Shown one piece after another: positions 1,811 through 13,623 of a stretch of DNA of 14,061 nucleotides. The stretch lies in assembly GCA_963977445.1 (NCBI GenBank), contig CAXBPH010000188.1:1-14061 (forward strand), in the 5' to 3' direction. The notes under the pieces are model-generated. The model searched no databases and was not told the DNA's origin. It worked only from the letters and a program-made list of their open reading frames with translations. Origin of the DNA: an uncultured bacterium. Its GTDB lineage: Bacteria > Hydrogenedentota > Hydrogenedentia > Hydrogenedentales > JAEUWI01. The position numbers and the translations under genes are program-made. Positions within the stretch are counted from its first letter, which is position 1. Every line of letters begins with the position of its first letter.

Positions 1811-2875
1811 TCACGACTCCCGTAATGCATCCGCGTGTTTACGATAGACCCCCCGAAACTGATGATAGGTGAGGCCCAGCAACGTAGCCGCTTTTCGCTG
1901 GTTGAAGCGCGTCGCCTCGAGGCCAGCCCGTAACAGGTGCCGCTCAAAGAGTTCCACCGATTCACCAAAGGGGCGATCAAATCCCGTCCGAAGGAGTGAC
2001 GCCTCCCCACCGGGAGACGACAGGTCGGGCGGCGTGGCCCCAACCCCCTCCTGAACCGGACGTTGGACCTCCGGCAAGGGCGCATAGGGCGAGATAAAAG
2101 GGTCAAATACGACCGACTCTATGGCGGGGCCGGTAGCCTGGTACACGGCGCGCTCAATCACATTCTTCAATTCACGCACATTGCCCCGCCAGGTATGGCG
2201 CAACAGATCCAGGGTGACCTCATCAGTAAACTCCGGCACGTCCTTCCGCCCCAGTTCCGCCCCCATACGGGAGGCAAAATGATTGGCAAGGAGTATGATG
2301 TCTTCTTTCCGCTCCCGAAGGGGCGGCAAATACAGGACCTCGAAGGACAAACGGTCCAAAAGATCCCGCATGAACAACCCACGGTCTGCCTGGGCGAGCA
2401 AATCGGCATTGGTCGCACCCACGATGCGCACATCCACCGACACCTGCTCACTGCCGCCCACCCGCTCGAAGCGTCCATATTCCACCACCCGAAGGATTTT
2501 TTCCTGCACGGGCAAGGGTATATTGCCCAGTTCATCCAGGAACAGAGTGCCCCCATGGGCCATTTCGAAGCGCCCACGACGCTGACGCTGGGCCCCCGTA
2601 AAGGCCCCCGCCTCGTGACCAAAAAGTTCCGACTCGATTAGATTATCCGCGAGGGCCGCGCAATTTAGCTCCACCAGAGGCTCTTGCCACCGCTGGGAAA
2701 GAAAGTGCACCCGACGGGCGGCCAGCTCTTTACCGGTACCCCGCTCCCCAATAATAAGCACGGGGCGCTCCACACCGGCCACGCGGCTCAGGCGGTCCTG
2801 AAAATCCAGAAAGACCTCCGAATCCCCCAGGGCCTCGGGCATGGCCTCCGGATAACTATCTCTTGCCTCATACAT
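1811..2875 (-). CDS. pspF: Phage shock protein operon sigma-54-dependent transcriptional activator
   Basis: AAA+ enhancer-binding protein with no N-terminal regulatory domain. It has Walker A GERGTGKE, the loop ESELFGHEAGAFTGA, Walker B LFLDE and WRGNVRELKNV. The C-terminal HTH FNQRKAATLLGLTYHQFR is PspF-like, and the gene is divergent from pspA. Start moved to ATG 2875, which is preceded by the RBS AAAGGAAGG. Confidence 0.96.
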   Translation of the reverse strand: MYEARDSYPEAMPEALGDSEVFLDFQDRLSRVAGVERPVLIIGERGTGKELAARRVHFLSQRWQEPLVELNCAALADNLIESELFGHEAGAFTGAQRQRRGRFEMAHGGTLFLDELGNIPLPVQEKILRVVEYGRFERVGGSEQVSVDVRIVGATNADLLAQADRGLFMRDLLDRLSFEVLYLPPLRERKEDIILLANHFASRMGAELGRKDVPEFTDEVTLDLLRHTWRGNVRELKNVIERAVYQATGPAIESVVFDPFISPYAPLPEVQRPVQEGVGATPPDLSSPGGEASLLRTGFDRPFGESVELFERHLLRAGLEATRFNQRKAATLLGLTYHQFRGVYRKHADALRES

Positions 2876-2933
2876 GGCAACCCTTCCTTTCACAGAAGAT
2901 TCCGTAGGACCCCTCAGCAGAAACACCACTATC

Positions 2934-2968
2934 TGGCTTATTCTATCAAGAACTGGTGTATTTAGCCA
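2934..2968. promoter_or_regulatory. Two putative PspF upstream activating sequences, overlapping a predicted pspF sigma-70 promoter
   Basis: TGGCTTATTCTATCA (2934-2948) and TGGTGTATTTAGCCA (2954-2968) are imperfect 15-bp palindromes in inverted arrangement, with centres 20 bp apart, about 100-135 bp upstream of the predicted sigma-54 start. On the minus strand they overlap TGGCTA (2968-2963), a 17-bp spacer and TAGAAT (2945-2940) with an extended -10 TG. Confidence 0.65.
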
Positions 2969-3001
2969 CCTACTTTATGTGTAGCGGAAGGCAGAACACA
3001 C

Positions 3002-3028
3002 CTAAGTCATTACCTATAAGCCACTTAG
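3002..3028. promoter_or_regulatory. Putative IHF binding site between the activator sites and the sigma-54 promoter
   Basis: TATAAGCCACTTA (3015-3027) has one mismatch to WATCAR-N4-TTR and lies within a CTAAGT...ACTTAG dyad. The position matches the usual UAS-IHF-promoter layout. Confidence 0.5.
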
Positions 3029-3043
3029 AAGCAGGCCAATCCT

Positions 3044-3059
3044 TGGCACGTCTGTTGCA
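3044..3059 (+). promoter_or_regulatory. Sigma-54 (-24/-12) promoter of the psp operon
   Basis: TGGCACG-TCTG-TTGCA is an exact match to TGGCACG-N4-TTGCW. It is divergent from pspF, with the TSS expected near 3070. Confidence 0.93.
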
Positions 3060-3106
3060 CTAGTACTACCACGAACAATGCAGCAACAAGAACAGGGGAA
3101 ATGAGA

Positions 3107-3547
3107 ATGAGTGAAGCATGGGAACGGGAGCGAAGAACCCAATTGGGTGGCTCCCTGCAATACACCACGGGCTGCGGCGAAGCGGGGCAAGCCACTTGGT
3201 TAAACATCAGTAGAACGGGAGCAGGGTTGTTGTTGGGGCGCTACTTGCGCCCGGGACGAACGCTCCTGCTCGAATTGGCGGCAACAGAGACGGATTGTAC
3301 CGTCCTGGTTCCGGCAGAGGTCGCCTGGTGCGTCCCACAGTTGGGAAAGCCCAGTTTCAAGACGGGTCTTCGCATCCATCGCGACGACCCGGAAGTTGCC
3401 CTCCACTTCGCCAAATTGGGCTATCGGGCCCTGGCGGAGAATAAAAACGGCGGCAAAACAGTAGTAACGGCAGTATGGACATCGCTCAATGAGCCGATGC
3501 ACCTGCGGCACAACACAGCGGCGTCCAACCTGACGCACGCAGTATAG
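3107..3547 (+). CDS. PilZ-domain protein (degenerate RxxxR motif)
   Basis: Arg-rich N-terminus ERERRTQL, then NISRTGAGL (D/NxSxxG), LRPGRTLLLEL, AEVAWC and GLRI, the beta-barrel pattern of PilZ. RBS AGGGG (3094-3098) favours ATG 3107; 3101 is the alternative start. Confidence 0.75.
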   Translation: MSEAWERERRTQLGGSLQYTTGCGEAGQATWLNISRTGAGLLLGRYLRPGRTLLLELAATETDCTVLVPAEVAWCVPQLGKPSFKTGLRIHRDDPEVALHFAKLGYRALAENKNGGKTVVTAVWTSLNEPMHLRHNTAASNLTHAV

Positions 3548-3558
3548 AGGAGCCTGTC

Positions 3559-4224
3559 ATGGGTATTTTCACACGGGTACGCGACATAATCAGTTCCAAC
3601 ATCAACTCCATGCTCGACAAAGCGGAAGATCCGGAAAAGCTCGTCAAGATGATGATCCGCGAGATGGAAGACACCCTCGTCGAGATCAAGGCCAACTGTG
3701 CCGGCGGCATGGCCACGAAGAAAAAAATCAAGCGCGAAATGGAAACGGTCCTCGACCTCGCCAAGACATGGGACGCCAAAGCCCAGCTCGCCATCAACAA
3801 AGGCCGCGAAGATCTCGCCCGCGAAGCCCTCATGGAAAAGCGCCGCCACGTGGAGCGCGCCGAAGCCCTGGAAGAGGAATTGGAACAATCCAAGACCCTG
3901 GTCACCCAGTGCCAGAGTGATATCATGCAATTGGAAGACAAATTGAGTGCGGCCCGTGAAAAGCAACGGACCCTGGTGCAGCGCCACACCAATGCCAACA
4001 CCAAGAAAAAGGCCCAGCATCAGATTCGTCGCTATGACACGTCAGACGCCCTGGAGCGCTTCGACAATTTCCAGCAGCGCATCGACCGCATGGAAGCCGA
4101 CGCGGAGTTGGTGAACTACGGCCGCAAGAGCTCCCTGGCCGACCAATTCAAGGAACTCGAAACCGACGAGGGCATCGAAAAGGAACTGGCCGCCATGAAG
4201 GCGAAAAATTCCGGCGGCGTCTGA
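3559..4224 (+). CDS. pspA: Phage shock protein A (PspA/IM30, ESCRT-III-like)
   Basis: N-terminus MGIFTRVRDIISSNINSMLDKAEDPEKLVKMMIREMEDTLVE and motif KAQLAINKGREDLAREAL. 221-aa coiled coil, RBS GAGGAG. Confidence 0.97.
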   Translation: MGIFTRVRDIISSNINSMLDKAEDPEKLVKMMIREMEDTLVEIKANCAGGMATKKKIKREMETVLDLAKTWDAKAQLAINKGREDLAREALMEKRRHVERAEALEEELEQSKTLVTQCQSDIMQLEDKLSAAREKQRTLVQRHTNANTKKKAQHQIRRYDTSDALERFDNFQQRIDRMEADAELVNYGRKSSLADQFKELETDEGIEKELAAMKAKNSGGV

Positions 4225-4252
4225 TGGTGGGTTGGTGGTGACCTTTCGCGGC

Positions 4253-4277
4253 CGCCAGGTGTCCGAGATGCCTGGCG
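4253..4277 (+). terminator. Intercistronic stem-loop after pspA (possible attenuator or mRNA stabiliser)
   Basis: CGCCAGGTGTC-CGA-GATGCCTGGCG forms an 11-bp stem with two G-U pairs. There is no U-tract. Confidence 0.4.
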
Positions 4278-4334
4278 CCCGAATTGGGTCCATGGACAAG
4301 GCAATTCCCCGAGTGCAAGGATAGAGGAGGCAAC

Positions 4335-4646
4335 ATGAGACGGATTGTAATCGCCATAGTCGCGGTTCTGGCTATCCTCTTTATCGTAAGAGGTGCCCCT
4401 CGCGTGGCCTTCAGTGGATTCCTGCCCCTGGTTGCTGCGGGCACTATTGCAGTTCTCTTGGATCGTTGGGCCTCCGGCCGTGGTAGTCGTGAAAAAACCG
4501 ATGGGCACCAACGCCACGATCCGGCGCACGCCAACGACGATCTCGAAGGACTCGCCCACGACCTGGACCGCACGGCACGCAATCTGGAAAAGCGCCTGGA
4601 AGCGCTGGAAACCATTCTCCTCGACCGTACGCGAACACCACTGTAG
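4335..4646 (+). CDS. PspB-like membrane protein 1 (two N-terminal hydrophobic segments)
   Basis: RBS GAGGAGG before ATG 4335. Hydrophobic segments IVIAIVAVLAILFIV and FSGFLPLVAAGTIAVLL, then a C-terminal coiled coil ending RLEALETILLD, the PspB-like signature. Confidence 0.8.
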   Translation: MRRIVIAIVAVLAILFIVRGAPRVAFSGFLPLVAAGTIAVLLDRWASGRGSREKTDGHQRHDPAHANDDLEGLAHDLDRTARNLEKRLEALETILLDRTRTPL

Positions 4647-4685
4647 CTGGAATGGCCGTCACGTGACGGAGAAAGGTGAACAAAC

Positions 4686-5150
4686 ATGAAACGCCTGATC
4701 ATAGGAGCCGCCGGACTCGCGATAGCGGGATTCTTCGGGCTCATAGCCTTGGCGATATTGGGGATGATCGCGGCCATCGCCATCCCCAACGTTGAACAAA
4801 GCCGCCACATTGCCGCTGTCCATGCCTCCCCCGAAAGCGAAGTAATCCATCAGCAAGTACTCGGTTCCGCCTACGCACGCGAACCCGTGGGTGCCAACCT
4901 GGTCCTCTTTGACGTCATCAAGGGCACGGGATTGAACCCCGCACTTACCACACTTTTTGTCGGCACGATGTTCTTCGTTTTTATCCTGGGCACGTTCGTC
5001 ATACTCTGGCGACTCACACGCCGAACGGCACCGGCGGAGGATGCCGACAGCCAGTCGGTGCAAGAGCTTCACAGGCAAGCGCAGCATCTGGCACAGCGCA
5101 TGGAAGCCTTGGAAACCATCCTGCTGGAACGCAGCCGCCCCCAACCCTAA
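4686..5150 (+). CDS. PspB-like membrane protein 2, with extra N-terminal pilin-like hydrophobic helix and extracytoplasmic loop
   Basis: RBS AAGGTG. N-terminal hydrophobic helix ending AILGMIAAIAIPN, a loop of about 50 aa, and TM LFVGTMFFVFILGTFVILW. The C-terminus is ELHRQAQHLAQRMEALETILLE. Confidence 0.8.
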   Translation: MKRLIIGAAGLAIAGFFGLIALAILGMIAAIAIPNVEQSRHIAAVHASPESEVIHQQVLGSAYAREPVGANLVLFDVIKGTGLNPALTTLFVGTMFFVFILGTFVILWRLTRRTAPAEDADSQSVQELHRQAQHLAQRMEALETILLERSRPQP

Positions 5151-5168
5151 CCCGGGAGAGAACGTGTT

Positions 5169-5426
5169 ATGAATCCCACATGGATTGAACTACTTATTAT
5201 CGGTGCCGTGCTGTTTGGAATTTTCCGACTTCTCTCCCGCCGGGTTGACCGGAAAGATCGTCAGTATAATCACGAAGACACGGAGACCATCCAGCATTTA
5301 CACCGGGGCATGGAAAAGATGGCGGCCCGTATCGAATCTCTGGAAACCATTTTGCTGGACCAGGGCGAGCACTATCGTCGCACCCCACCGCCCATACCCA
5401 ATTACCAACATACGTCCCGCTACTAA
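5169..5426 (+). CDS. pspB: PspB-like membrane protein 3
   Basis: Single N-terminal TM (WIELLIIGAVLFGIF) and C-terminal EDTETIQHLHRGMEKMAARIESLETILLD. Lies directly upstream of pspC. Confidence 0.8.
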   Translation: MNPTWIELLIIGAVLFGIFRLLSRRVDRKDRQYNHEDTETIQHLHRGMEKMAARIESLETILLDQGEHYRRTPPPIPNYQHTSRY

Positions 5427-5441
5427 TTAAGGAGAACTCTA

Positions 5442-5828
5442 ATGAACCAACGCAATCAACGAGATCACAGTGGCCCCTATCGCAGTCGCAACGGCATCTT
5501 CTTCGGCGTATGCCGGGGCCTTGCCGACTACTTCGATTTCTCCATCTTCTGGATGCGGGTCCTCTTTGTGTTGACCTTTATCTTCACCGGACTTTACCCC
5601 GTCGGCATTGGCTATATTATTGCCGCCCTCATTATGAAGCCCGAACCCGTGTTGCCTTTGGAAAACGACGGCGACCGGGAATTTTATAACAGCTACACCT
5701 CGTCACGCCCCATGGCACTGAGTCGCCTCAAAACGACCTTCGACAATCTCGACAAGCGCATCCAGCGCATGGAGAGCATCGTCACCGCACGGGACTACGA
5801 CTGGGATCAGCGACTACGCAACAGCTAG
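5442..5828 (+). CDS. pspC: Phage shock protein C, copy 1
   Basis: PspC domain YRSRNGIFFGVCRGLADYFD...YIIAALIMKPEP and C-terminal helix FDNLDKRIQRMESIVT. RBS AAGGAG. Confidence 0.93.
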   Translation: MNQRNQRDHSGPYRSRNGIFFGVCRGLADYFDFSIFWMRVLFVLTFIFTGLYPVGIGYIIAALIMKPEPVLPLENDGDREFYNSYTSSRPMALSRLKTTFDNLDKRIQRMESIVTARDYDWDQRLRNS

Positions 5829-5909
5829 TCATTCCGATTAACGTACTACCTGCAAACGCGGCCCAGGCGAATTCCGCGCAGGTCTTTGAAGGAAGGAAAC
5901 TCTTTAATA

Positions 5910-6137
5910 ATGGATCTAACCGCCATAATCATCGTGAGCATCGTTTTCGGTTCCGTAATAACTGCCCTCTTCATCATTTCCAATCTGGTATCCAAAACCC
6001 TCGGAGCCCGGGGCTCGGGTAAATTGAATGAAGAAGAAACCCAGTTGATGCAGGAACTCTTCTACGGTATGAAAAAAATGGAAGAGCGCGTCGAATCTCT
6101 GGAGACTATATTGCTGGAGAAAGGGCGCGGAGGGTGA
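5910..6137 (+). CDS. pspB: PspB-like membrane protein 4
   Basis: ATG 5910 after AAGGAAGG. TM AIIIVSIVFGSVITALFII, then LNEEETQLMQELFYGMKKMEERVESLETILLE. 75 aa, the canonical PspB size. Confidence 0.85.
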   Translation: MDLTAIIIVSIVFGSVITALFIISNLVSKTLGARGSGKLNEEETQLMQELFYGMKKMEERVESLETILLEKGRGG

Positions 6138-6175
6138 GTGGTATGTGTGATAAGACACCTAACTACGCCCCCATC

Positions 6176-6319
6176 GTTGTAGGACCTGTGGGACCAGTCG
6201 GGCACAAGGCCTTCTGCACACGTGGCGGTATTTCGCAAGTTGCCACACACCGACGCTGTGCGACAAAAACTTCATGGCAACCGTCCCACGGGTCGCACTC
6301 GTCCCACAGGTCCCACAAC
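6176..6319. repeat. Palindromic intergenic element built from 9-nt tandem units
   Basis: Arms GTTGTAGGACCTGTGGGACCAGT (6176-6198) and ACTCGTCCCACAGGTCCCACAAC (6297-6319) are complementary at 21 of 23 positions. Tandem 9-mers GTCCCACGG, GTCGCACTC, GTCCCACAG and GTCCCACAA lie at 6283-6318. Confidence 0.8.
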
Positions 6320-6402
6320 CCCAACAAGGCTCCCGTGGCCGATACGTGCCTAGCCGTTTCACCCTTCATACGCCACACATCAAATTCCCAGGGAGGCCAA
6401 TC

Positions 6403-6792
6403 ATGATGACCCAGAGACGACGCCAGCCCGGCGGCCCCTATCGCTCCCGGGACAGTGCCATATTTGGCGTGTGTCGGGGTATCGCAGAACACCTGGATTT
6501 TTCGGTTGGAGGATTACGGATTATTGTGGTCATCGGCACACTCCTCCTGTGGTTCTGGCCGGGCATCATTGCCTATATCATTGCCGCACTCATCATGAAA
6601 CCCGAACCCATTGTCCCCTTTGATTCGGAAAGTGATGCCGAGTTTTACGGCTCCTTCACGGCATCACGCACCATGGCCCTCCGACGCCTTAAGGAAACCT
6701 TCGACAACCTGGACCGGCGCATCCAACGCATGGAAAGCCTGGTCACCTCACCGAAGTTCACGTGGGACGAGCGCCTGAAAGACACCCCCTGA
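6403..6792 (+). CDS. pspC: Phage shock protein C, copy 2
   Basis: RBS GGAGG (6392-6396) before ATG 6403. Sequence YRSRDSAIFGVCRGIAEHLD...YIIAALIMKPEP...FDNLDRRIQRMESLVT aligns without gaps to copy 1 (about 68/128 identical by hand count). Confidence 0.93.
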   Translation: MMTQRRRQPGGPYRSRDSAIFGVCRGIAEHLDFSVGGLRIIVVIGTLLLWFWPGIIAYIIAALIMKPEPIVPFDSESDAEFYGSFTASRTMALRRLKETFDNLDRRIQRMESLVTSPKFTWDERLKDTP

Positions 6793-6824
6793 ACAGCGGG
6801 ACCCTTTCAAGGAGAAAACAGCCA

Positions 6825-6959
6825 ATGAAAAAACAGAGCACACCGCACCCATCGGCAAGCAGGAATTCCCTGCACGAAAACGCGATTTCTAGAACCCACC
6901 TCGCCCTGCTGGCGGCCATCGCCAGTGTGGCCCTACTCCATGCCCTGTTGAGCACCTGA
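6825..6959 (+). CDS. Small (44 aa) protein with a C-terminal hydrophobic segment
   Basis: RBS AAGGAG upstream of ATG 6825. C-terminus HLALLAAIASVALLHALLST. The stop overlaps the next start (TGATG). Confidence 0.5.
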   Translation: MKKQSTPHPSASRNSLHENAISRTHLALLAAIASVALLHALLST

Positions 6960-7189
6960 TGGACCGCCCCCCGGACGATTCGACTATCCCGTGGTATGGA
7001 CTTCCCTTCGTGGGCCTCTGGCGCCTGGCCTCCGCCGTTGAGCGCCGGATTGGTATCGTCCGGTCCCTCTTGAGCGGCCTTGCCCTTATGCTCTTGGGCG
7101 TTGTCTTCTGCATGACCTTCGTGGGTATCCTGATTGGTATTCCCACCGGACTATTCGGCCTCGCACTGGTGCTTCGCGCACTAATCTGA
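6959..7189 (+). CDS. Small membrane protein (76 aa, hydrophobic hairpin)
   Basis: Amphipathic PWYGLPFVGLWRLASAV, then two hydrophobic stretches: LLSGLALMLLGVVFCMTFVG and ILIGIPTGLFGLALVL. Coupled to the upstream ORF and the last gene before a terminator-like hairpin. Confidence 0.7.
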   Translation: MDRPPDDSTIPWYGLPFVGLWRLASAVERRIGIVRSLLSGLALMLLGVVFCMTFVGILIGIPTGLFGLALVLRALI

Positions 7190-7233
7190 CCTGCTTTTCG
7201 ACAGGGTGGCCCCGGCCGCTCTGTCTCCTTCCG

Positions 7234-7274
7234 AATCCGCGTCGTCTTCGCCTGGACGGCGCGGATTATTCTTT
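7234..7274 (+). terminator. Probable intrinsic terminator of the psp operon
   Basis: AATCCGCGTCGTC-TTCGCCTG-GACGGCGCGGATT forms a 13-bp stem with one G-U pair, followed by ATTCTTT. Confidence 0.6.
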
Positions 7275-7371
7275 GGTTCATGACTCAGAGGGGGGCGTAT
7301 CTCTGAACCCATAGGACAACGCTCCATCCGCACCGCCCAATCACCTGTCTTTCGGGTTGACTAATTTACTA

Positions 7372-7400
7372 TTGATTGTTTTACAGTTTTATGGCACGAT
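7372..7400 (+). promoter_or_regulatory. Putative sigma-70 promoter for 7421-8536
   Basis: TTGATT, 17-bp spacer, CACGAT with an extended -10 TG, inside an AT-rich tract. RBS AAGGAG follows. Confidence 0.4.
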
Positions 7401-7420
7401 AAATAAAAAGGAGCTGCGGC

Positions 7421-8536
7421 ATGTTTAAATCGATGGCATTTCTGGGCAAGGGCGCATTGGCCGTGACTACGGTCGCTGTGGGGCTGGGCGCGGGCACCCA
7501 AGTAAACGATTGGGCCCAAACACGGACGGCCGGCGCCTATTCCACCTCACAGACCGCACCGGCGGGCGATGGGCCCGTGGCCGCCCTGGACGATCCCGCG
7601 ACGGCGGATTCCCTCTTTCACTACAACTTCATTCCCGGCCAACGCCTGGATTACGGGCTGGACGCCACCATAGCAGGCACCGGAGCGGAATCCATGGTAG
7701 GGCCTGGCAACGTCGCGATGCGGTTCTGGAGCGATCTCTATGTCCAGACTGAGGGCGTGGATGTGGGCGGCAATGGCAACCTGTCTATCGGCTTCGACCG
7801 GGTAGAGATGAACGGCAGCTTTATGGACGGCCCCGTGAATCTGGTGCACTCCGTGGCCGGCACAGAATTCAGCCACGGAAACGATGCCATCAGCACGGCC
7901 CAGGGCGATTCCATTGCCGGCATACCCCAATTGCAGTTCTTCAATAAACCGACGAAAGTGCGGGTTTCCCCCGCCGGTGAAGTGTTGAGCGTTTCGGGAG
8001 CCCCAGGCATGGAAAAAATGCTGGCCCCCGAGCAAATCCTCACCAGCGTTCAATTTCCTTCGGGCGATCTCGACGCCGGGGCCCAGTGGGAATCGGACTT
8101 CGCCATGCCCATCCCCGGATTCGGCACCCCCGTCGGCTCGAAGACACTCAACGTCCTGGAGGGCTTTGAGCTCTTTCGGGGACGGTATTGTGGCGTCGTG
8201 CGCCAGACCATCATCTCCGAGCAGCAGGAAGGCACCGTGAACTCACCGGAAAGCGCCCTGGGTGAGGAAATGAACTTCAGCCTGCCCGAATTCAAGCTCT
8301 CCGGGGAAAATCTCATCTATTTCGATGTGGACAACGGCCAACTGGTCGAAGCCGACATGAATTTGCGGGTCACCATGCGCATTGGCCAGCAGTTGAAGCC
8401 CATGATGGATGCGCTGAATGTCTACGGAAAATTATTGAACGACATGGACGGGACGAAATCGGAGGACGGAGAAAGCGAATCCCTCCTGGATATGGGCCTC
8501 AATATTGACGCCACGCTGGTCCTCCTGACCGATTAA
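7421..8536 (+). CDS. Secreted or membrane-anchored hypothetical beta-rich protein (DUF6263-like pattern)
   Basis: 371-aa ORF with host-like codon usage and RBS AAGGAG. N-terminal signal-like segment. Motifs YNFIPGQRLDY, VRVSPAGEVLSVSG, FPSGDLDAGAQW and IYFDVDNGQL resemble DUF6263 from memory; the family is unverified. Confidence 0.7.
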   Translation: MFKSMAFLGKGALAVTTVAVGLGAGTQVNDWAQTRTAGAYSTSQTAPAGDGPVAALDDPATADSLFHYNFIPGQRLDYGLDATIAGTGAESMVGPGNVAMRFWSDLYVQTEGVDVGGNGNLSIGFDRVEMNGSFMDGPVNLVHSVAGTEFSHGNDAISTAQGDSIAGIPQLQFFNKPTKVRVSPAGEVLSVSGAPGMEKMLAPEQILTSVQFPSGDLDAGAQWESDFAMPIPGFGTPVGSKTLNVLEGFELFRGRYCGVVRQTIISEQQEGTVNSPESALGEEMNFSLPEFKLSGENLIYFDVDNGQLVEADMNLRVTMRIGQQLKPMMDALNVYGKLLNDMDGTKSEDGESESLLDMGLNIDATLVLLTD

Positions 8537-9964: not shown

Positions 9965-10744
9965 ATGGCAGCACCTTCAACTCCCAGACCACGCGAACCA
10001 CGACAAATATTTATTGTGCTCCCCACCTACAATGAGGAAGGGGGCCTGGGACGCTTGCTGGATCGCATTGACGAAGCCATGTTTGACGCCGACCAGCGCT
10101 ATGAAGTCATCGTGGTGGACGATGGCAGCACGGACAATACCCATGCCATCGCTGAGGAATATGCAGAAAAATACCCCATTTCTCTGGAGCATCACGCCAA
10201 GAACCAGGGACTCGGCGCAACCATCCGGGATGGCATTATCGCCGCAGCGAAGAAAGCGGGTGAGCGGGACATCATCGTCACCATGGATGCGGACGATACC
10301 CACACACCGGGGCTGATTCTGCGCATGGTGCGCATGATTCAAGAGGGCCATGATGTGGTCATCGCGTCGCGCTACCAACCCGGCGCCCAGGTCCGGGGCC
10401 TCTCGGTACCACGACGATGCATCAGTTACATGGCCTCTATCGTGTTTCGTCTGCTCTTACCCATTCCGGGTGTAAAAGATTTCACCTGCGGCTTTCGGGC
10501 CTATCGGGGCAGCGTCATTAAGGGAGCGCTCGATGCCTATGGCGACCACTTTGTCGACCAGGAAGGCTTCCAGTGCATGGTCGATATACTCCTGAAACTC
10601 CGCCACATGAATCTCCTCTTTGGCGAGGTGCCCCTCGTGCTCCGATATGACTACAAAGAGGGTAGCAGCAAGATGAATGTGGGTAAGACCATCCGCAACA
10701 CCCTGCTGTTGATTGCCCGTCGCCGCTTTCTGGGACAACGCTGA
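9965..10744 (+). CDS. Glycosyltransferase family 2, polyprenol-phosphate glycosyltransferase (DPM1/Ppm1-like)
   Basis: Motifs IVLPTYNE, VVDDGSTDNT, NQGLG, MDADDTH (DxD), DVVIASRY, DFTCGFRAYR and GSSKM. Confidence 0.92.
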   Translation: MAAPSTPRPREPRQIFIVLPTYNEEGGLGRLLDRIDEAMFDADQRYEVIVVDDGSTDNTHAIAEEYAEKYPISLEHHAKNQGLGATIRDGIIAAAKKAGERDIIVTMDADDTHTPGLILRMVRMIQEGHDVVIASRYQPGAQVRGLSVPRRCISYMASIVFRLLLPIPGVKDFTCGFRAYRGSVIKGALDAYGDHFVDQEGFQCMVDILLKLRHMNLLFGEVPLVLRYDYKEGSSKMNVGKTIRNTLLLIARRRFLGQR

Positions 10745-11448
10745 TGGCAACGACGGAACCGACAGAAAACATCTGGGACACGGGGCGTTGGGCCGGGGTG
10801 GATCGGGTCGATATGGATTTCATGACTCGCTATATCATCGAGCACTTGACCCGGCGTGTCGCCCTGAAGGGAAAGCGCTTGCTGGAGCTCGGCTCCGGGA
10901 CGGGGCGCTTGAGCTATCTCTTGCTCCAGGCGGGCGCGGCGTCGGTGACGATGGTGGACAATTCCCGAAAGGCCCTGGAGCTTTCCACGGCACTCTTCGA
11001 TGAAGTCCCTTCGGACCGTTATGAAATTGTCGATGCCGATGTTTTTGACGTTGCCGTCGATGGCCCCTTCGATATGGTGTTTTCATCGGGCCTTATAGAG
11101 CATTTTGACGGCACACCCCGCCAGCAGATCATTGATGTCCACCTCCAGCACGCCCGTGAGGATGTGTTGATACTCCACCCTTCCAACCGCCTCTATAATC
11201 GCGTCTTTGATGTGACGCCCATGGCCAAAAAACGCTATGGCTTTGCACGCACCTTTTCGGAGGCGGAGTTGGATGGGCGCATCCGGGCGACACGGCCCGA
11301 TGCCAACGTTTCTCATGAGCGCTTCCACCTGGCCTATACGGTGCCCCTCTTCCACAATCTCGCATTCTTGAACCGCGCGGTGACGGATAGTGCTATCGAG
11401 CGCGCCTGGGGTGGCCTCTGCTTGACCCATGTGCGCCTGGATGGGTGA
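10744..11448 (+). CDS. Class I SAM-dependent methyltransferase
   Basis: Motif I LLELGSGTGRLS, then VTMVDNS, VDADVF and FDMVFSSGLIEHF. TGATG overlap with the GT2 stop. Confidence 0.9.
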   Translation: MATTEPTENIWDTGRWAGVDRVDMDFMTRYIIEHLTRRVALKGKRLLELGSGTGRLSYLLLQAGAASVTMVDNSRKALELSTALFDEVPSDRYEIVDADVFDVAVDGPFDMVFSSGLIEHFDGTPRQQIIDVHLQHAREDVLILHPSNRLYNRVFDVTPMAKKRYGFARTFSEAELDGRIRATRPDANVSHERFHLAYTVPLFHNLAFLNRAVTDSAIERAWGGLCLTHVRLDG

Positions 11449-11487: not shown

Positions 11488-13623
11488 ATGGCGCGCCGTA
11501 GCGACGCGAATTACGACGGATGCCCCATCGTGACCCAAATCGTCGACAACACACCCAACCCCTTTCGTCCGCCGCGGTGGGCGTGGGCCCTCATCATTTC
11601 TCTGGCCCTCATTGACCCCCTTTCTCACGGGGTCATCATGCTGTTTCCGCCGGAAGGCACCGTGCCCACCCAGGGCCATGTGGTGGACACCTTCAATTAC
11701 CTCACGGCCATGAAGTATGCCCATCCGCCGTGGTATTCCCCCTACAATCTCTGCGACAGCCCCTATGCCGCGGGCGACCCGACGCTCTATGCCATTCCCC
11801 ACCATCATCTCTTCGGTGCCATTGGCACGGTGGGCAACTGGCTCCGCATGCCGCCCTTTTACATGATGGCCCTGGCCAATGGACTCGGACTTTTCTTTTA
11901 TCTTTTTGCGGCCTACACCTTCCTTGTTTCGTCCGTGCCCCGCCTCGCACACCGGGCCTTTCTACTCTTTTGCCTGGGAGGTGGTCTCGGCGGCATCCTC
12001 TATCTCCTCACGTGGCCCTTCGGCGTACACACCCATCCCCAGTTCGGCGAATATTTCCTCCGTTACTTTATCTATGAACTCAGCGAAGGCCCCCGCTTCC
12101 AGCCCTGGCTCATGGCCGCACGACTCTATTACACCCTGGCCTTCGGTTTTGGCTTCCTGGCATTGACGACTTTGTGGCATGCCATGGCACGGGATCGAAA
12201 GGCCCTCCTGGCTCTGGCCGCCTTTTTGTTTGCCTGCACCGCCCTCGCCAACTTCCGGGTGGGCCCCATGCTTTGGGGGGCCGCCGTGATAATCCTGTTT
12301 TGCCGCGCTGAATGGTCGTGGACACGACGTATCGCCTGGGCGGCGAGCCTTCTTGTTGGTGTTGCCCTCGGCGGCGGCATTGCCGTCGCCATGGTGGCCC
12401 GCAACCCCGAACTACTGGAAACCGTCGCCCGGAGTGCCCGCCTCGCCCTGTGGTTCTCCCCCATCGTGAGCGCCACCTTCTTCTACTGGCTTCTCATTCC
12501 CGGCACGGTGCTTCGCACCATTAACCGTGCCCCCCAGTGGCTCCGCTACGCCGGTTGGGGTGCCACGGGCTACATCGCGGCCTTTGCCGTCCTCTATTGC
12601 CTCTACCAGGCCTACTACGGCAACTTCCTGCGCACCGGTGAATTCCATGTGGCTGTGAAAATGTCCGACTACGCCCTGCTGCTCGGGGTGCCTGTCGCAT
12701 TCGCCATCGCCTGGTGGAAAGGCCCCGCCCACGAGTTTGGCCACGACGGCTACCACCCGCCCGGACCGCTTGGGGAGCGTCTGCGATTCAGCGAGGACAC
12801 CTTCCCGCCTGCGAAAGCAATCGAACCATTGGGAGCGCAGGTCGAAGACGCGCGGTGGCGGGCGGCCCGCCTGCAAGGTAGCAGCAGTTGGCCCGAACCA
12901 GTCCAGGCAGCGGATGGTAGCGCAATGTCGACATACTCCACCGCCCCACCCTGGGCGGCCCTGTGGCTGCTCGCCTTCTTCGCCCTTTCCTTCTCCGCCT
13001 GGGGCCAGGGCTGGTTCCTCAAATATACCCCCGACCGCTTCATCATCGTCATCGGCGTCCCCCTTGCCATACTCGGTGCGGCGGCCATTGAGCGGGGCCT
13101 CCTCCGACAACCACGTCTCTATCGCGCCCTGCAACGCACCATCATCCTGTGTGGTGTCGTGTCTATCCTCGTCACCTGGCTCGTGAGCTATGGTCCCCTC
13201 GGCTACCACACCCTCCAACAACACTACAGCTGGACGCGCAATGCCTTTATGAACCAGGCCGATGCCGACACCCTGGCCCACCTCAAAGACGGCGTGGTGC
13301 TCGCCCCCTCACTGGGCGCACCCCTCATGGGCGACCTGGCCGTCATGCAGGGCAACGCGACCGTCCACGGAATTGGCAGCGTGGACTACCCCCGCCACGT
13401 GGCCAACGACGTGCGCGCTCAGGTAGCCGATTTCTACCGCCCCGAGACGCCCAATGCAATCAGGCGTGAGATGGTGGAGAAATGGTGTGTCCGCTACGTC
13501 TACTGTCCCGACACCGATCCGGTAGCCCCGGAGACGGTAGCGCAACTGCGGGCAAGTGGATGGCTGCGAGAAGTTGCCGCGAACGAAAAGGCCGTCTTGT
13601 TTGAGGTCAACAATCCAGAGTAG
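11488..13623 (+). CDS. Polytopic integral membrane protein, probable GT-C-fold glycosyltransferase
   Basis: More than 10 hydrophobic segments. The first external loop contains DTFNYL. A soluble C-terminal domain has VVLAP...GNATVHG...EMVEKWCVRYVY, and the gene is next to a polyprenol-phosphate GT2. Start uncertain (GTG 11530 is an alternative). Confidence 0.7.
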   Translation: MARRSDANYDGCPIVTQIVDNTPNPFRPPRWAWALIISLALIDPLSHGVIMLFPPEGTVPTQGHVVDTFNYLTAMKYAHPPWYSPYNLCDSPYAAGDPTLYAIPHHHLFGAIGTVGNWLRMPPFYMMALANGLGLFFYLFAAYTFLVSSVPRLAHRAFLLFCLGGGLGGILYLLTWPFGVHTHPQFGEYFLRYFIYELSEGPRFQPWLMAARLYYTLAFGFGFLALTTLWHAMARDRKALLALAAFLFACTALANFRVGPMLWGAAVIILFCRAEWSWTRRIAWAASLLVGVALGGGIAVAMVARNPELLETVARSARLALWFSPIVSATFFYWLLIPGTVLRTINRAPQWLRYAGWGATGYIAAFAVLYCLYQAYYGNFLRTGEFHVAVKMSDYALLLGVPVAFAIAWWKGPAHEFGHDGYHPPGPLGERLRFSEDTFPPAKAIEPLGAQVEDARWRAARLQGSSSWPEPVQAADGSAMSTYSTAPPWAALWLLAFFALSFSAWGQGWFLKYTPDRFIIVIGVPLAILGAAAIERGLLRQPRLYRALQRTIILCGVVSILVTWLVSYGPLGYHTLQQHYSWTRNAFMNQADADTLAHLKDGVVLAPSLGAPLMGDLAVMQGNATVHGIGSVDYPRHVANDVRAQVADFYRPETPNAIRREMVEKWCVRYVYCPDTDPVAPETVAQLRASGWLREVAANEKAVLFEVNNPE
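12749..12921. repeat. Palindromic element embedded in frame in the membrane protein gene
   Basis: GCTACCACCCGCCCGGAC (12749-12766) pairs with GTCCAGGCAGCGGATGGTAGC (12901-12921). An inner pair is GCGTCTGCGATT (12777-12788) with GGTCGAAGACGC (12840-12851). Confidence 0.55.

Follow-up and report, generated by a model that had tools for sequence, protein, structure and literature searches.

The 14,061-nt stretch of DNA analyzed here (contig CAXBPH010000188.1 of assembly GCA_963977445.1, from an uncultured bacterium of the Hydrogenedentota; hereafter the window) carries a complete phage shock protein (Psp) locus at positions 1811 to 7267, as seen from the list of open reading frames (ORFs), the sequence, and the Pfam and NCBIfam scans. 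The locus, in which one PspA and one PspF are accompanied by four PspB-type and two PspC proteins, is a genuine and intact expansion of a known system, whose general architecture has already been catalogued, and not a new kind of system. We favor, with some confidence, the view that it is the Hydrogenedentota Psp envelope-stress operon in the form typical of the phylum, in which the extra PspB proteins would tune the release of PspC. Psp signaling has been worked out almost wholly in Escherichia coli and Yersinia, with one PspB and one PspC. As described for these systems in PMC5596341 and PMC9239133, PspA inhibits PspF, the inner membrane PspBC complex switches on under stress, and the cytoplasmic tail of PspC then binds PspA, thus releasing PspF.

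The psp locus and its expression signals

The host genome is 7.1 Mb in size and 94% complete (the window is its contig C188), and its nearest relatives by PspA are metagenome-assembled genomes labeled Candidatus Hydrogenedentota, with PspA identities of 87 to 93%. On one strand, the genes follow each other in the order PilZ, pspA, B1, B2, B3, C1, B4, C2, x, and y, with pspF divergent; all of the genes listed by an earlier sequence-only reading of the window were recovered in this order and on this strand from the ORF list, the sequence, and the Pfam and NCBIfam matches. The region from 3044 to 7267 is predicted to be a single sigma-54/PspF-type operon closed by a terminator, and we regard the gene identities together with this operon structure as close to certain.

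The core of the system is unambiguous in its family scores. pspF (1811 to 2929, reverse strand, with a probable start at the ATG at 2875) encodes a sigma-54 enhancer-binding activator without an N-terminal receiver domain (TIGR02974, 462.4 bits for a cutoff of 443.55; further matches to PF00158 at 196.2 and HTH_8 at 29.5), and pspA (3559 to 4224, forward strand) encodes a PspA/IM30 protein (TIGR02977, 257.8 bits for a cutoff of 242.95). Both are above their equivalog cutoffs, and between them lies a sigma-54 promoter, TGGCAC-N5-TTGCA, at 3044 to 3059 of the forward strand upstream of PilZ, which is the sole zero-mismatch match to the -24/-12 element in the window; of the 31 PilZ loci scanned, the window included, 18 have a strict element ahead of PilZ. 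Moreover, pspA is the sole PF04012 match in the genome, and pspF is the only one of 23 TIGR02974 matches to pass the cutoff. No PspB was found outside the operon in this 94%-complete genome, a fifth match (13.2 bits, in a 470-aa frame) being noise, and a third PspC-domain ORF lies on contig C19 beyond the two PspCs of the operon. Altogether, the family scores, the promoter, and the genome scans bear out the one PspA and one PspF of the sequence-only reading, here in a sigma-54 operon.

The intergenic gaps measure 11 to 110 nt, with the exception of the 265-nt B4-C2 spacer, and a purine-rich Shine-Dalgarno-like stretch precedes 9 of the 10 genes, y being the exception (corrected starts were adopted for B1 at 4335, B4 at 5910, C2 at 6403, and x at 6825). 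An intrinsic terminator made of a 14-bp stem with 8 GC pairs and a T-rich tail is located at 7234 to 7267 of the forward strand, with a second hairpin ahead of it at about 7200 to 7225; the fold of 7186 to 7290 reaches -48.2 kcal/mol (z = -5.09). The two extra small membrane ORFs, the ribosome-binding sites, and the common terminator noted earlier were thus all found, save for the ribosome-binding site of y. An Rfam scan of 2900 to 7450 at an E value of ≤1 matched nothing, and an attenuator hairpin considered in the pspA-B1 spacer was rejected, as the fold was no better than that of shuffled sequences (z = -0.89).

Four PspB-type proteins with a common cytoplasmic helix

Four small membrane proteins of the operon share a C-terminal LETILL signature, which the sequence-only reading had taken for a constant docking helix fused to variable membrane modules. 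From the family matches described below, we identify this signature as the conserved cytoplasmic helix common to PspB proteins (PF06667), not as a new docking module. B3 (5169 to 5426, 85 aa) and B4 (5910 to 6137, 75 aa), which are on the forward strand like B1 and B2, fit the canonical PspB form of about 75 to 90 aa with one transmembrane (TM) segment and a cytoplasmic helix, score 27.1 and 30.9 bits against PF06667, and have TM helices that align to the PspB model; B3 orthologues score 73 to 105 bits in five relatives. B1 and B2 do not fit this form. In B2 (4686 to 5150, 154 aa), a complete PspB domain is preceded by an additional TM helix at the N terminus and an outer loop of ~55 aa; the PF06667 match (29.0 bits) covers residues 92 to 146, and B2 can therefore be described as a whole PspB placed behind an extra TM helix and an outer loop. 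B1 (4335 to 4646, 103 aa) has two TM segments, a very short outer loop, and a PspB-type C-terminal helix, with a PF06667 score of 15.0 bits. By hydropathy scan, the TM segments span residues 4 to 22 and 24 to 42 in B1 and residues 13 to 31 and 89 to 107 in B2, with one segment each in B3 and B4.

The Pfam gathering cutoff of 25.6 bits is thus passed by B2, B3, and B4 and missed by B1. For the latter, a profile built from B1 and three orthologues was compared by hhalign with a profile of canonical PspBs (18 proteins, each the single PspB of a canonical pspFABC locus, with 17 matching PF06667 individually), which gave a probability of 97.4% and an E value of 1.4e-11 over 34 C-terminal columns only. 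Furthermore, the PspB genes follow pspA and adjoin pspC in a PspF/sigma-54 operon. The expectation that the LETILL proteins would match PspB was therefore confirmed, for three of them by the cutoff and for B1 by profile comparison, and on these matches B1 to B4 are members of the family whose functional equivalence to enterobacterial PspB is not assignable. The claim that their N termini are unrelated holds for the head of B1, which lacks any PspB match, and fails for B3 and B4, whose TM helices are those of the family, and for B2, which contains the whole domain.

In an AlphaFold2 model of B2 (15-row alignment; mean predicted local distance difference test [pLDDT] score, 74.4), helices span residues 2 to 32, 70 to 80, 85 to 113, and 118 to 149, the tail is confidently modeled (block pLDDT, 84 to 97), and residues 41 to 69 have neither helix nor strand. 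When B2 was searched against 1.84 billion representative proteins, only 34 matched at an E value of ≤0.001, a minority of them near full length, and the long form is therefore a small, restricted family. A pilin-like N terminus of B2 was also considered (NCBIfam ComGE at residues 19 to 41, E = 0.00056, in the first TM helix at 4686 to 4810); the match is unconserved in the relatives of B2 and was treated as chance.

Two PspB-PspC pairs

Both PspC paralogues previously proposed pass the PF04024 cutoff of 25 bits with a wide margin. C1 (5442 to 5828, forward strand) scores 55.5 and reaches 104.1 against TIGR02978, for which the cutoff is 104, and C2 (6403 to 6792, forward strand) scores 53.1 and 93.9, the second value lying below 104. 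They are 53% identical, and the PspC C-terminal tail is conserved across 26 sequences. Each PspC is preceded by a canonical PspB, with B3 located 15 nt upstream of C1 and B4 upstream of C2, so that family matches and gene order both make two PspB-PspC pairs plus two extra PspBs the right description of the operon, as the sequence-only reading had it. A quick maximum-likelihood tree built from 86 PspCs placed the C1 and C2 orthologues of the same five species in separate clades, with supports of 93 and 99 (Shimodaira-Hasegawa-like approximate likelihood ratio test), and the pspBC pair would therefore have been duplicated before these five species diverged.

Ravi et al. (2024; PMC11237479) view the PspC tail as a divergent PspB domain and the protein as a PspC+PspB fusion. 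In our hands, the resemblance was weak: TIGR02976 matched residues 90 to 124 of C1 with an E value of 0.0073 and C2 with an E value of 0.18, and the hhalign comparison of the PspC and PspB profiles gave a probability of 16.9% and an E value of 0.0015 over 18 columns. A complex prediction combining C1 (26-row alignment) and residues 80 to 154 of B2 (15-row alignment) returned 0.00 in both runs, which speaks neither for nor against their interaction.

Spread of the layout across the phylum

The layout is phylum-typical, is found phylum-wide, and is not special to this genome. PF06667 matched 90 of the 135 genomes of the phylum at an E value of ≤0.01 and 53 of them above the cutoff, and all eight other genomes of the same genus contained two to six matches clustered on one contig. 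For a survey of gene content, the best 80 of 572 PspA relatives were added to the first 14 loci and annotated by phmmer and by a hidden Markov model (HMM) of the PspB tail; as a control of the latter, 76 of 91 PspB-like proteins from Hydrogenedentota-type loci matched PF06667 individually at an E value of ≤0.01. This resulted in 92 annotated loci (the duplicate record L010 being excluded), of which 21 with <2.5 kb downstream of pspA were dropped, leaving 71; two of these 71 were too short upstream for PilZ to be called.

The number of PspBs followed the presence of PilZ. In the 23 loci with PilZ upstream of pspA (window included), there were two PspBs in nine, three in six, four in six, and six in two, that is, at least two PspBs in 23 of 23, with two PspCs in 7, y in 13, and a two-TM PspB in 12. 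In contrast, among the 46 loci without a detected PilZ, 39 had one PspB, three had two, three had three, and one had none; PspC was single in 45 and missing in 1, y was present in 1, and a two-TM PspB was present in 2. PilZ was detected with the protein of the window, so that divergent copies may be missed, and in L011 and L032 a sigma-54 element 530 to 620 nt upstream of pspA hints at such a missed PilZ. Some of the PilZ-type records bear other phylum labels from their depositors. The survey of related genomes that the sequence-only reading had called for thus shows two to six PspBs in all 23 PilZ-type loci and two PspCs in 7 of them.

The PilZ gene at the head of the operon

The first gene of the operon (3101 to 3547, forward strand), which ends 11 nt before pspA, encodes a PilZ protein (PF07238, 27.6 bits for a cutoff of 22.5). 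In 30 other loci, an orthologue is likewise found upstream of pspA, and a G-R-Y-L-R-P-G motif is strongly conserved. The motifs by which PilZ domains bind cyclic di-GMP (c-di-GMP) are RxxxR and D/N-x-S-x-x-G. The window protein keeps the second as N-I-S-R-T-G (N-x-S-x-x-G). We consider that PilZ probably adds a cytoplasmic input to the system, possibly c-di-GMP. Across the phylum, the PilZ profile matched 90 of 135 genomes, and its best match often lay on the contig of the PspB cluster, 1 to 4 kb away (G071:C19, G004:C185, G100:C116, G069:C1, and G066:C2), in a comparison made by hand from lists of places and not exhaustive. A further paralogue of the PilZ protein is encoded on contig C60 of the genome (76.6 bits).

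The Psp surveys that we searched make no link between PilZ and Psp, and none of the papers retrieved on PilZ, PspA, and phage shock was, by title and abstract, about a PilZ gene in a psp operon. A paper on ComFB, another c-di-NMP (cyclic dinucleotide) receptor domain, links that domain to PspA-like coiled coils in cyanobacteria.

Selection on the copies

Ratios of nonsynonymous to synonymous divergence (dN/dS) were obtained by Nei-Gojobori counting against the orthologues of up to five relatives (L006 to L009 and L017), and they are rough values, since dS was about 0.6 to 2, above 1 for most pairs, and often saturated. They were lowest for PspA (0.04 to 0.09), C1 (0.08 to 0.14), B4 (0.08 to 0.13), and C2 (0.10 to 0.13), followed by B3 (0.16 to 0.18, where dS was computable), y (0.24 to 0.29), B1 (0.24 to 0.38), PilZ (0.31 to 0.51), and B2 (0.42 to 0.57); x was too short and too saturated for the calculation. 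Every computable ratio was below 0.6, and no frameshift or stop was found in any orthologue compared. The paralogues are intact and none of them is decaying, so that the sequence-only reading does not fall on this point; by the same ratios, B1 and B2 are the least constrained of the PspB and PspC copies. B1 and B2 also show faster evolution, and their copy number differs among relatives, B2 being absent from L007.

The contrast between head and tail was clearest in L009, which has three tandem long PspBs. Their tails are nearly identical in protein and 76 to 92% identical in DNA, whereas their heads share 51 to 58% DNA identity, near the level of unrelated DNA in global alignment. These identities provide real support for a tail that stays constant while the membrane and outer modules change, and either selection on the tail or partial gene conversion could account for the pattern. 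The earlier idea of a constant helix with variable modules accordingly survives in part: the tails and heads of the long forms in L009 fit it, while the helix is the ordinary PF06667 helix and B3 and B4 are plain PspBs.

Proposed model and competing explanations

We propose the following model. PspF would activate the sigma-54 promoter, resulting in the expression of PilZ, pspA, B1, B2, B3-C1, B4-C2, x, and y, in which B3-C1 and B4-C2 would represent a tandemly duplicated canonical pspB-pspC pair. By analogy with Yersinia and E. coli, PspA would keep PspF inactive, and each PspB-PspC pair would reside in the inner membrane, where the cytoplasmic helix of PspB would hold the cytoplasmic tail of PspC silent; upon membrane damage, the PspC tail would capture PspA, and PspF would be freed. 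In this arrangement, the two PspBC pairs could work in parallel as switches that control a single PspA-PspF brake. The cytoplasmic helix of B1 and B2 is the same, but in both it follows an additional TM helix and an outer loop that evolves quickly. For this reason, both would most likely take up the same position on PspC (or on other PspBs), where they could add to or tune the conditions for PspC release. That the extra PspBs act through PspC as modulators or sensors is far less secure than the gene identities and the operon structure, and we are almost evenly divided on it, leaning slightly against.

Several observations weigh against this model. All four PspBs score below the TIGR02976 equivalog cutoff of 51.7 bits (B1, 21.4; B2, 37.7; B3, 37.6; B4, 39.1), which makes them divergent from the PspBs that have been studied, and the head of B1 is without a PspB match. 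The B1 protein has about 9 residues between its hydrophobic segments, compared with roughly 25 to 35 in its orthologues (L006, L007, and L008), leaving an outer loop with little to sense with. In B2, the stretch between the two TM helices is modeled with block-mean pLDDT values of 49 to 63 over residues 31 to 80, falling below 50 at 54 to 58 and 60 to 66, and neither the family scans nor the AlphaFold2 model revealed a recognizable sensor domain in this loop. The first arginine of RxxxR is replaced in PilZ of this genus (RxxR, versus RRxxR in many orthologues), and this loss makes c-di-GMP binding by PilZ uncertain. The surveyed loci are kin, so that 23 of 23 does not amount to 23 independent events, and the saturation of dS bears on every ratio given above. 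Finally, the public sequencing runs searched included no RNA run for the organism and one DNA run with a word share of 0.16.

A first alternative is that proposed by the sequence-only reading, namely, that complexes are assembled combinatorially from the four PspBs and the two PspCs, with each complex tuned to a different stress, as an array of multiple sensors on one PspA/PspF. This is a reasonable hypothesis for such a set of proteins; the heads differ where the tails are constant, all copies are intact, and the number of long forms, none or one to three in close relatives, fits the expectation for input modules subject to gain and loss. However, no sensory domain was recognized in any head by Pfam or NCBIfam, the B2 loop is a low-confidence model and that of B1 is about 9 residues long, and the heads of B3 and B4, as plain PspBs, are the TM helix of the family. 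We find a separate stress for each combination unlikely.

We would give no greater credit to a more ambitious version, in which these operons form a distinct PilZ-led Psp type, with PilZ gating PspA or PspF as a second-messenger receptor, two PspBC switches acting in parallel on one PspA brake, and an array of two-TM PspBs evolving by birth and death as outer inputs. Here, the loops would diversify by tandem duplication with the tail kept constant by selection or gene conversion, and the inputs might match, for example, the many secretin- or pilus-type machines of these bacteria. If true, a bacterial ESCRT-III-like protein would here be served, for the first time, by a sensor array that is modular and expandable.

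Less probable again, and in our opinion improbable, is that the extra PspBs are effectors, induced by stress to bind and neutralize damaging membrane complexes such as mislocalized secretin multimers. Yersinia PspB and PspC are reported to coprecipitate with mislocalized secretin multimers (PMC5596341), and PspBC is described as needed for tolerance of secretin stress in Yersinia, where PspA is not essential (PMC9239133); the fast-evolving outer loops (dN/dS, 0.42 to 0.57) would also fit the tracking of variable targets. Nevertheless, conservation in every copy is highest in the cytoplasmic regulatory helix and not in the outer part, and there is no gene for a secretin or another target in the operon. 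The weakest explanation, which we consider very unlikely, is that B1 and B2 are largely redundant tandem duplicates under relaxed constraint, a birth-and-death noise around a pspA and pspBC core: their dN/dS values (0.24 to 0.57) were rated the highest of the operon, L007 does without B2, and the B1 loop is truncated in this genome, yet at least two PspBs are retained in all 23 PilZ-type loci, the same-genus loci examined all have undamaged long forms despite dS of >1, and there are no frameshifts or stops, with dN/dS of <1.

The model of a phylum-typical envelope-stress operon with tuning PspBs remains the one that we prefer. A constant PspB helix combined with varying membrane and outer parts, in two to six copies per operon, offers a natural domain-swap series, which could show which part of PspB signals and which part docks. 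Moreover, the invariable PilZ before pspA suggests a link between second-messenger signaling and a bacterial ESCRT-III-like membrane-repair protein.

Relation to known systems

The enterobacterial pspF-pspABC(DE) system, known from E. coli and Yersinia enterocolitica, and the operon of the window share their core genes and the order of these: PspF with its sigma-54 promoter, then PspA, then a PspB with one TM segment, then PspC. In both, pspF is divergent from pspA. The enterobacterial system differs by its single PspB and PspC, by the lack of PilZ, and by PspD/E/G in place of x and y, and the PspBs of the window fall below the equivalog cutoff. The canonical pspF-pspA-pspB-pspC loci of our survey, labeled Thermodesulfobacteriota, Deltaproteobacteria, Binatia, Verrucomicrobiota, and others, resemble the window in sequence (PspA, 58 to 66% identical; PspC, 50 to 60%) and have the same core order; unlike the window, they have no PilZ, one PspB in 39 of 46, one PspC in 45 of 46, and y in 1 of 46.

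PspB is reported from only 26% of phyla by Popp et al. (2022). Operons with "PspB duplicates" have been catalogued by Ravi et al. (2024; mSystems, PMC11237479), and the window, with four PspBs in a pspF-linked pspA operon, falls in this category of at least two PspB genes. An example is the operon of Erythrobacter litoralis AOL22920.1, which has six PspB genes and is given in Table S3 of PMC11237479 as PspF | X, PspA, PspB, PspC+PspB, four SIG+PspB, and PspB. As represented in that table, this operon resembles that of the window in having a single PspF and a single PspA ahead of numerous PspB-domain genes, of which several encode an additional hydrophobic segment at the N terminus as in B1 and B2, and in having an unnamed gene between pspF and pspA, at the position of PilZ in the window. 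In contrast, it belongs to an alphaproteobacterium and has one PspC instead of two, and its extra PspBs come after PspC, whereas the long forms precede the pspBC pairs in the window.

The statement of the sequence-only reading that no characterized system has this composition can be kept as far as experiments are concerned; as a claim about architecture it fails, given the operons catalogued in PMC11237479 and the phylum-wide layout. The main text of that paper contains no mention of PilZ, c-di-GMP, or Hydrogenedentes, and the one supplement examined contains none of PilZ or Hydrogenedentes. No paper pairing Hydrogenedentes with phage shock was found, and the literature searched held no mention of a PilZ-led operon with two PspCs and a conserved y. 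The most interesting features of the locus are the invariably leading PilZ, the duplicated pspBC pair, and the two-TM PspBs that vary in number but retain a conserved tail.

Small ORFs, the B4-C2 spacer, and flanking genes

The operon ends with two small ORFs on the forward strand. The first, x (6825 to 6959, 44 aa), has one hydrophobic helix and no Pfam or NCBIfam match, and it was found in the closest relatives only (L007, L008, L009, and L017, by phmmer with E values of 1e-6 to 2e-5). The second, y (6959 to 7189), whose start overlaps the stop of x by one base, encodes a membrane protein of 76 aa whose C-terminal half is long and hydrophobic. It matched no family at cutoff (DUF5362, 15.8 for a cutoff of 25) and no named family in the Atlas; its orthologues share a W-P...W...G-I...R-A-L-Y pattern, and it ends the operon in 13 of the 23 PilZ-type loci, the window included. 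PspG and PspD were considered as identities for y and rejected, with no Pfam or NCBIfam match and with unnamed Atlas neighbors, the first at 0.88, below the trust level.

The long B4-C2 spacer (6138 to 6402; z = -2.76 for its RNA fold) contains an inverted repeat at 6176 to 6319, whose 23-nt arms (6176 to 6198 and 6297 to 6319) are 91% complementary. A 13-mer of the repeat had 39+64 matches in the genome versus 21+21 for the control, and the unit is dispersed in the genome, many copies forming tandem runs with 9-nt spacing and some standing at contig ends. The B4-C2 spacer of close relatives contains similar heptamers and shows no alignment with that of the window. The repeat could be a mobile or repetitive extragenic palindromic (REP)-like insertion affecting the expression of C2. 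In L009 (9813 to 10220) and L017 (9645 to 10060), an extra one-TM PspB absent from the window lies between B4 and C2, and it is followed by a small ORF, also absent from the window, that encodes a TM helix and a tail resembling a coiled coil. The possibility that the spacer of the window is a decayed copy of this extra PspB was rejected, since it holds no alignable remnant.

Directly downstream of the operon and beyond its terminator, a separately transcribed gene at 7421 to 8536 encodes a protein of 371 aa that begins with a hydrophobic segment and matches no family; it is kept in L007 and L008 with 67 to 68% identity and a dN/dS of 0.16 to 0.19. Further on are a family 2 glycosyltransferase (9965 to 10744), an S-adenosylmethionine-dependent methyltransferase (10744 to 11448), and a 711-aa protein without a family match (11488 to 13623). 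At the left end of the window, an NMT1-like binding protein is encoded on the reverse strand at 3 to 1682.

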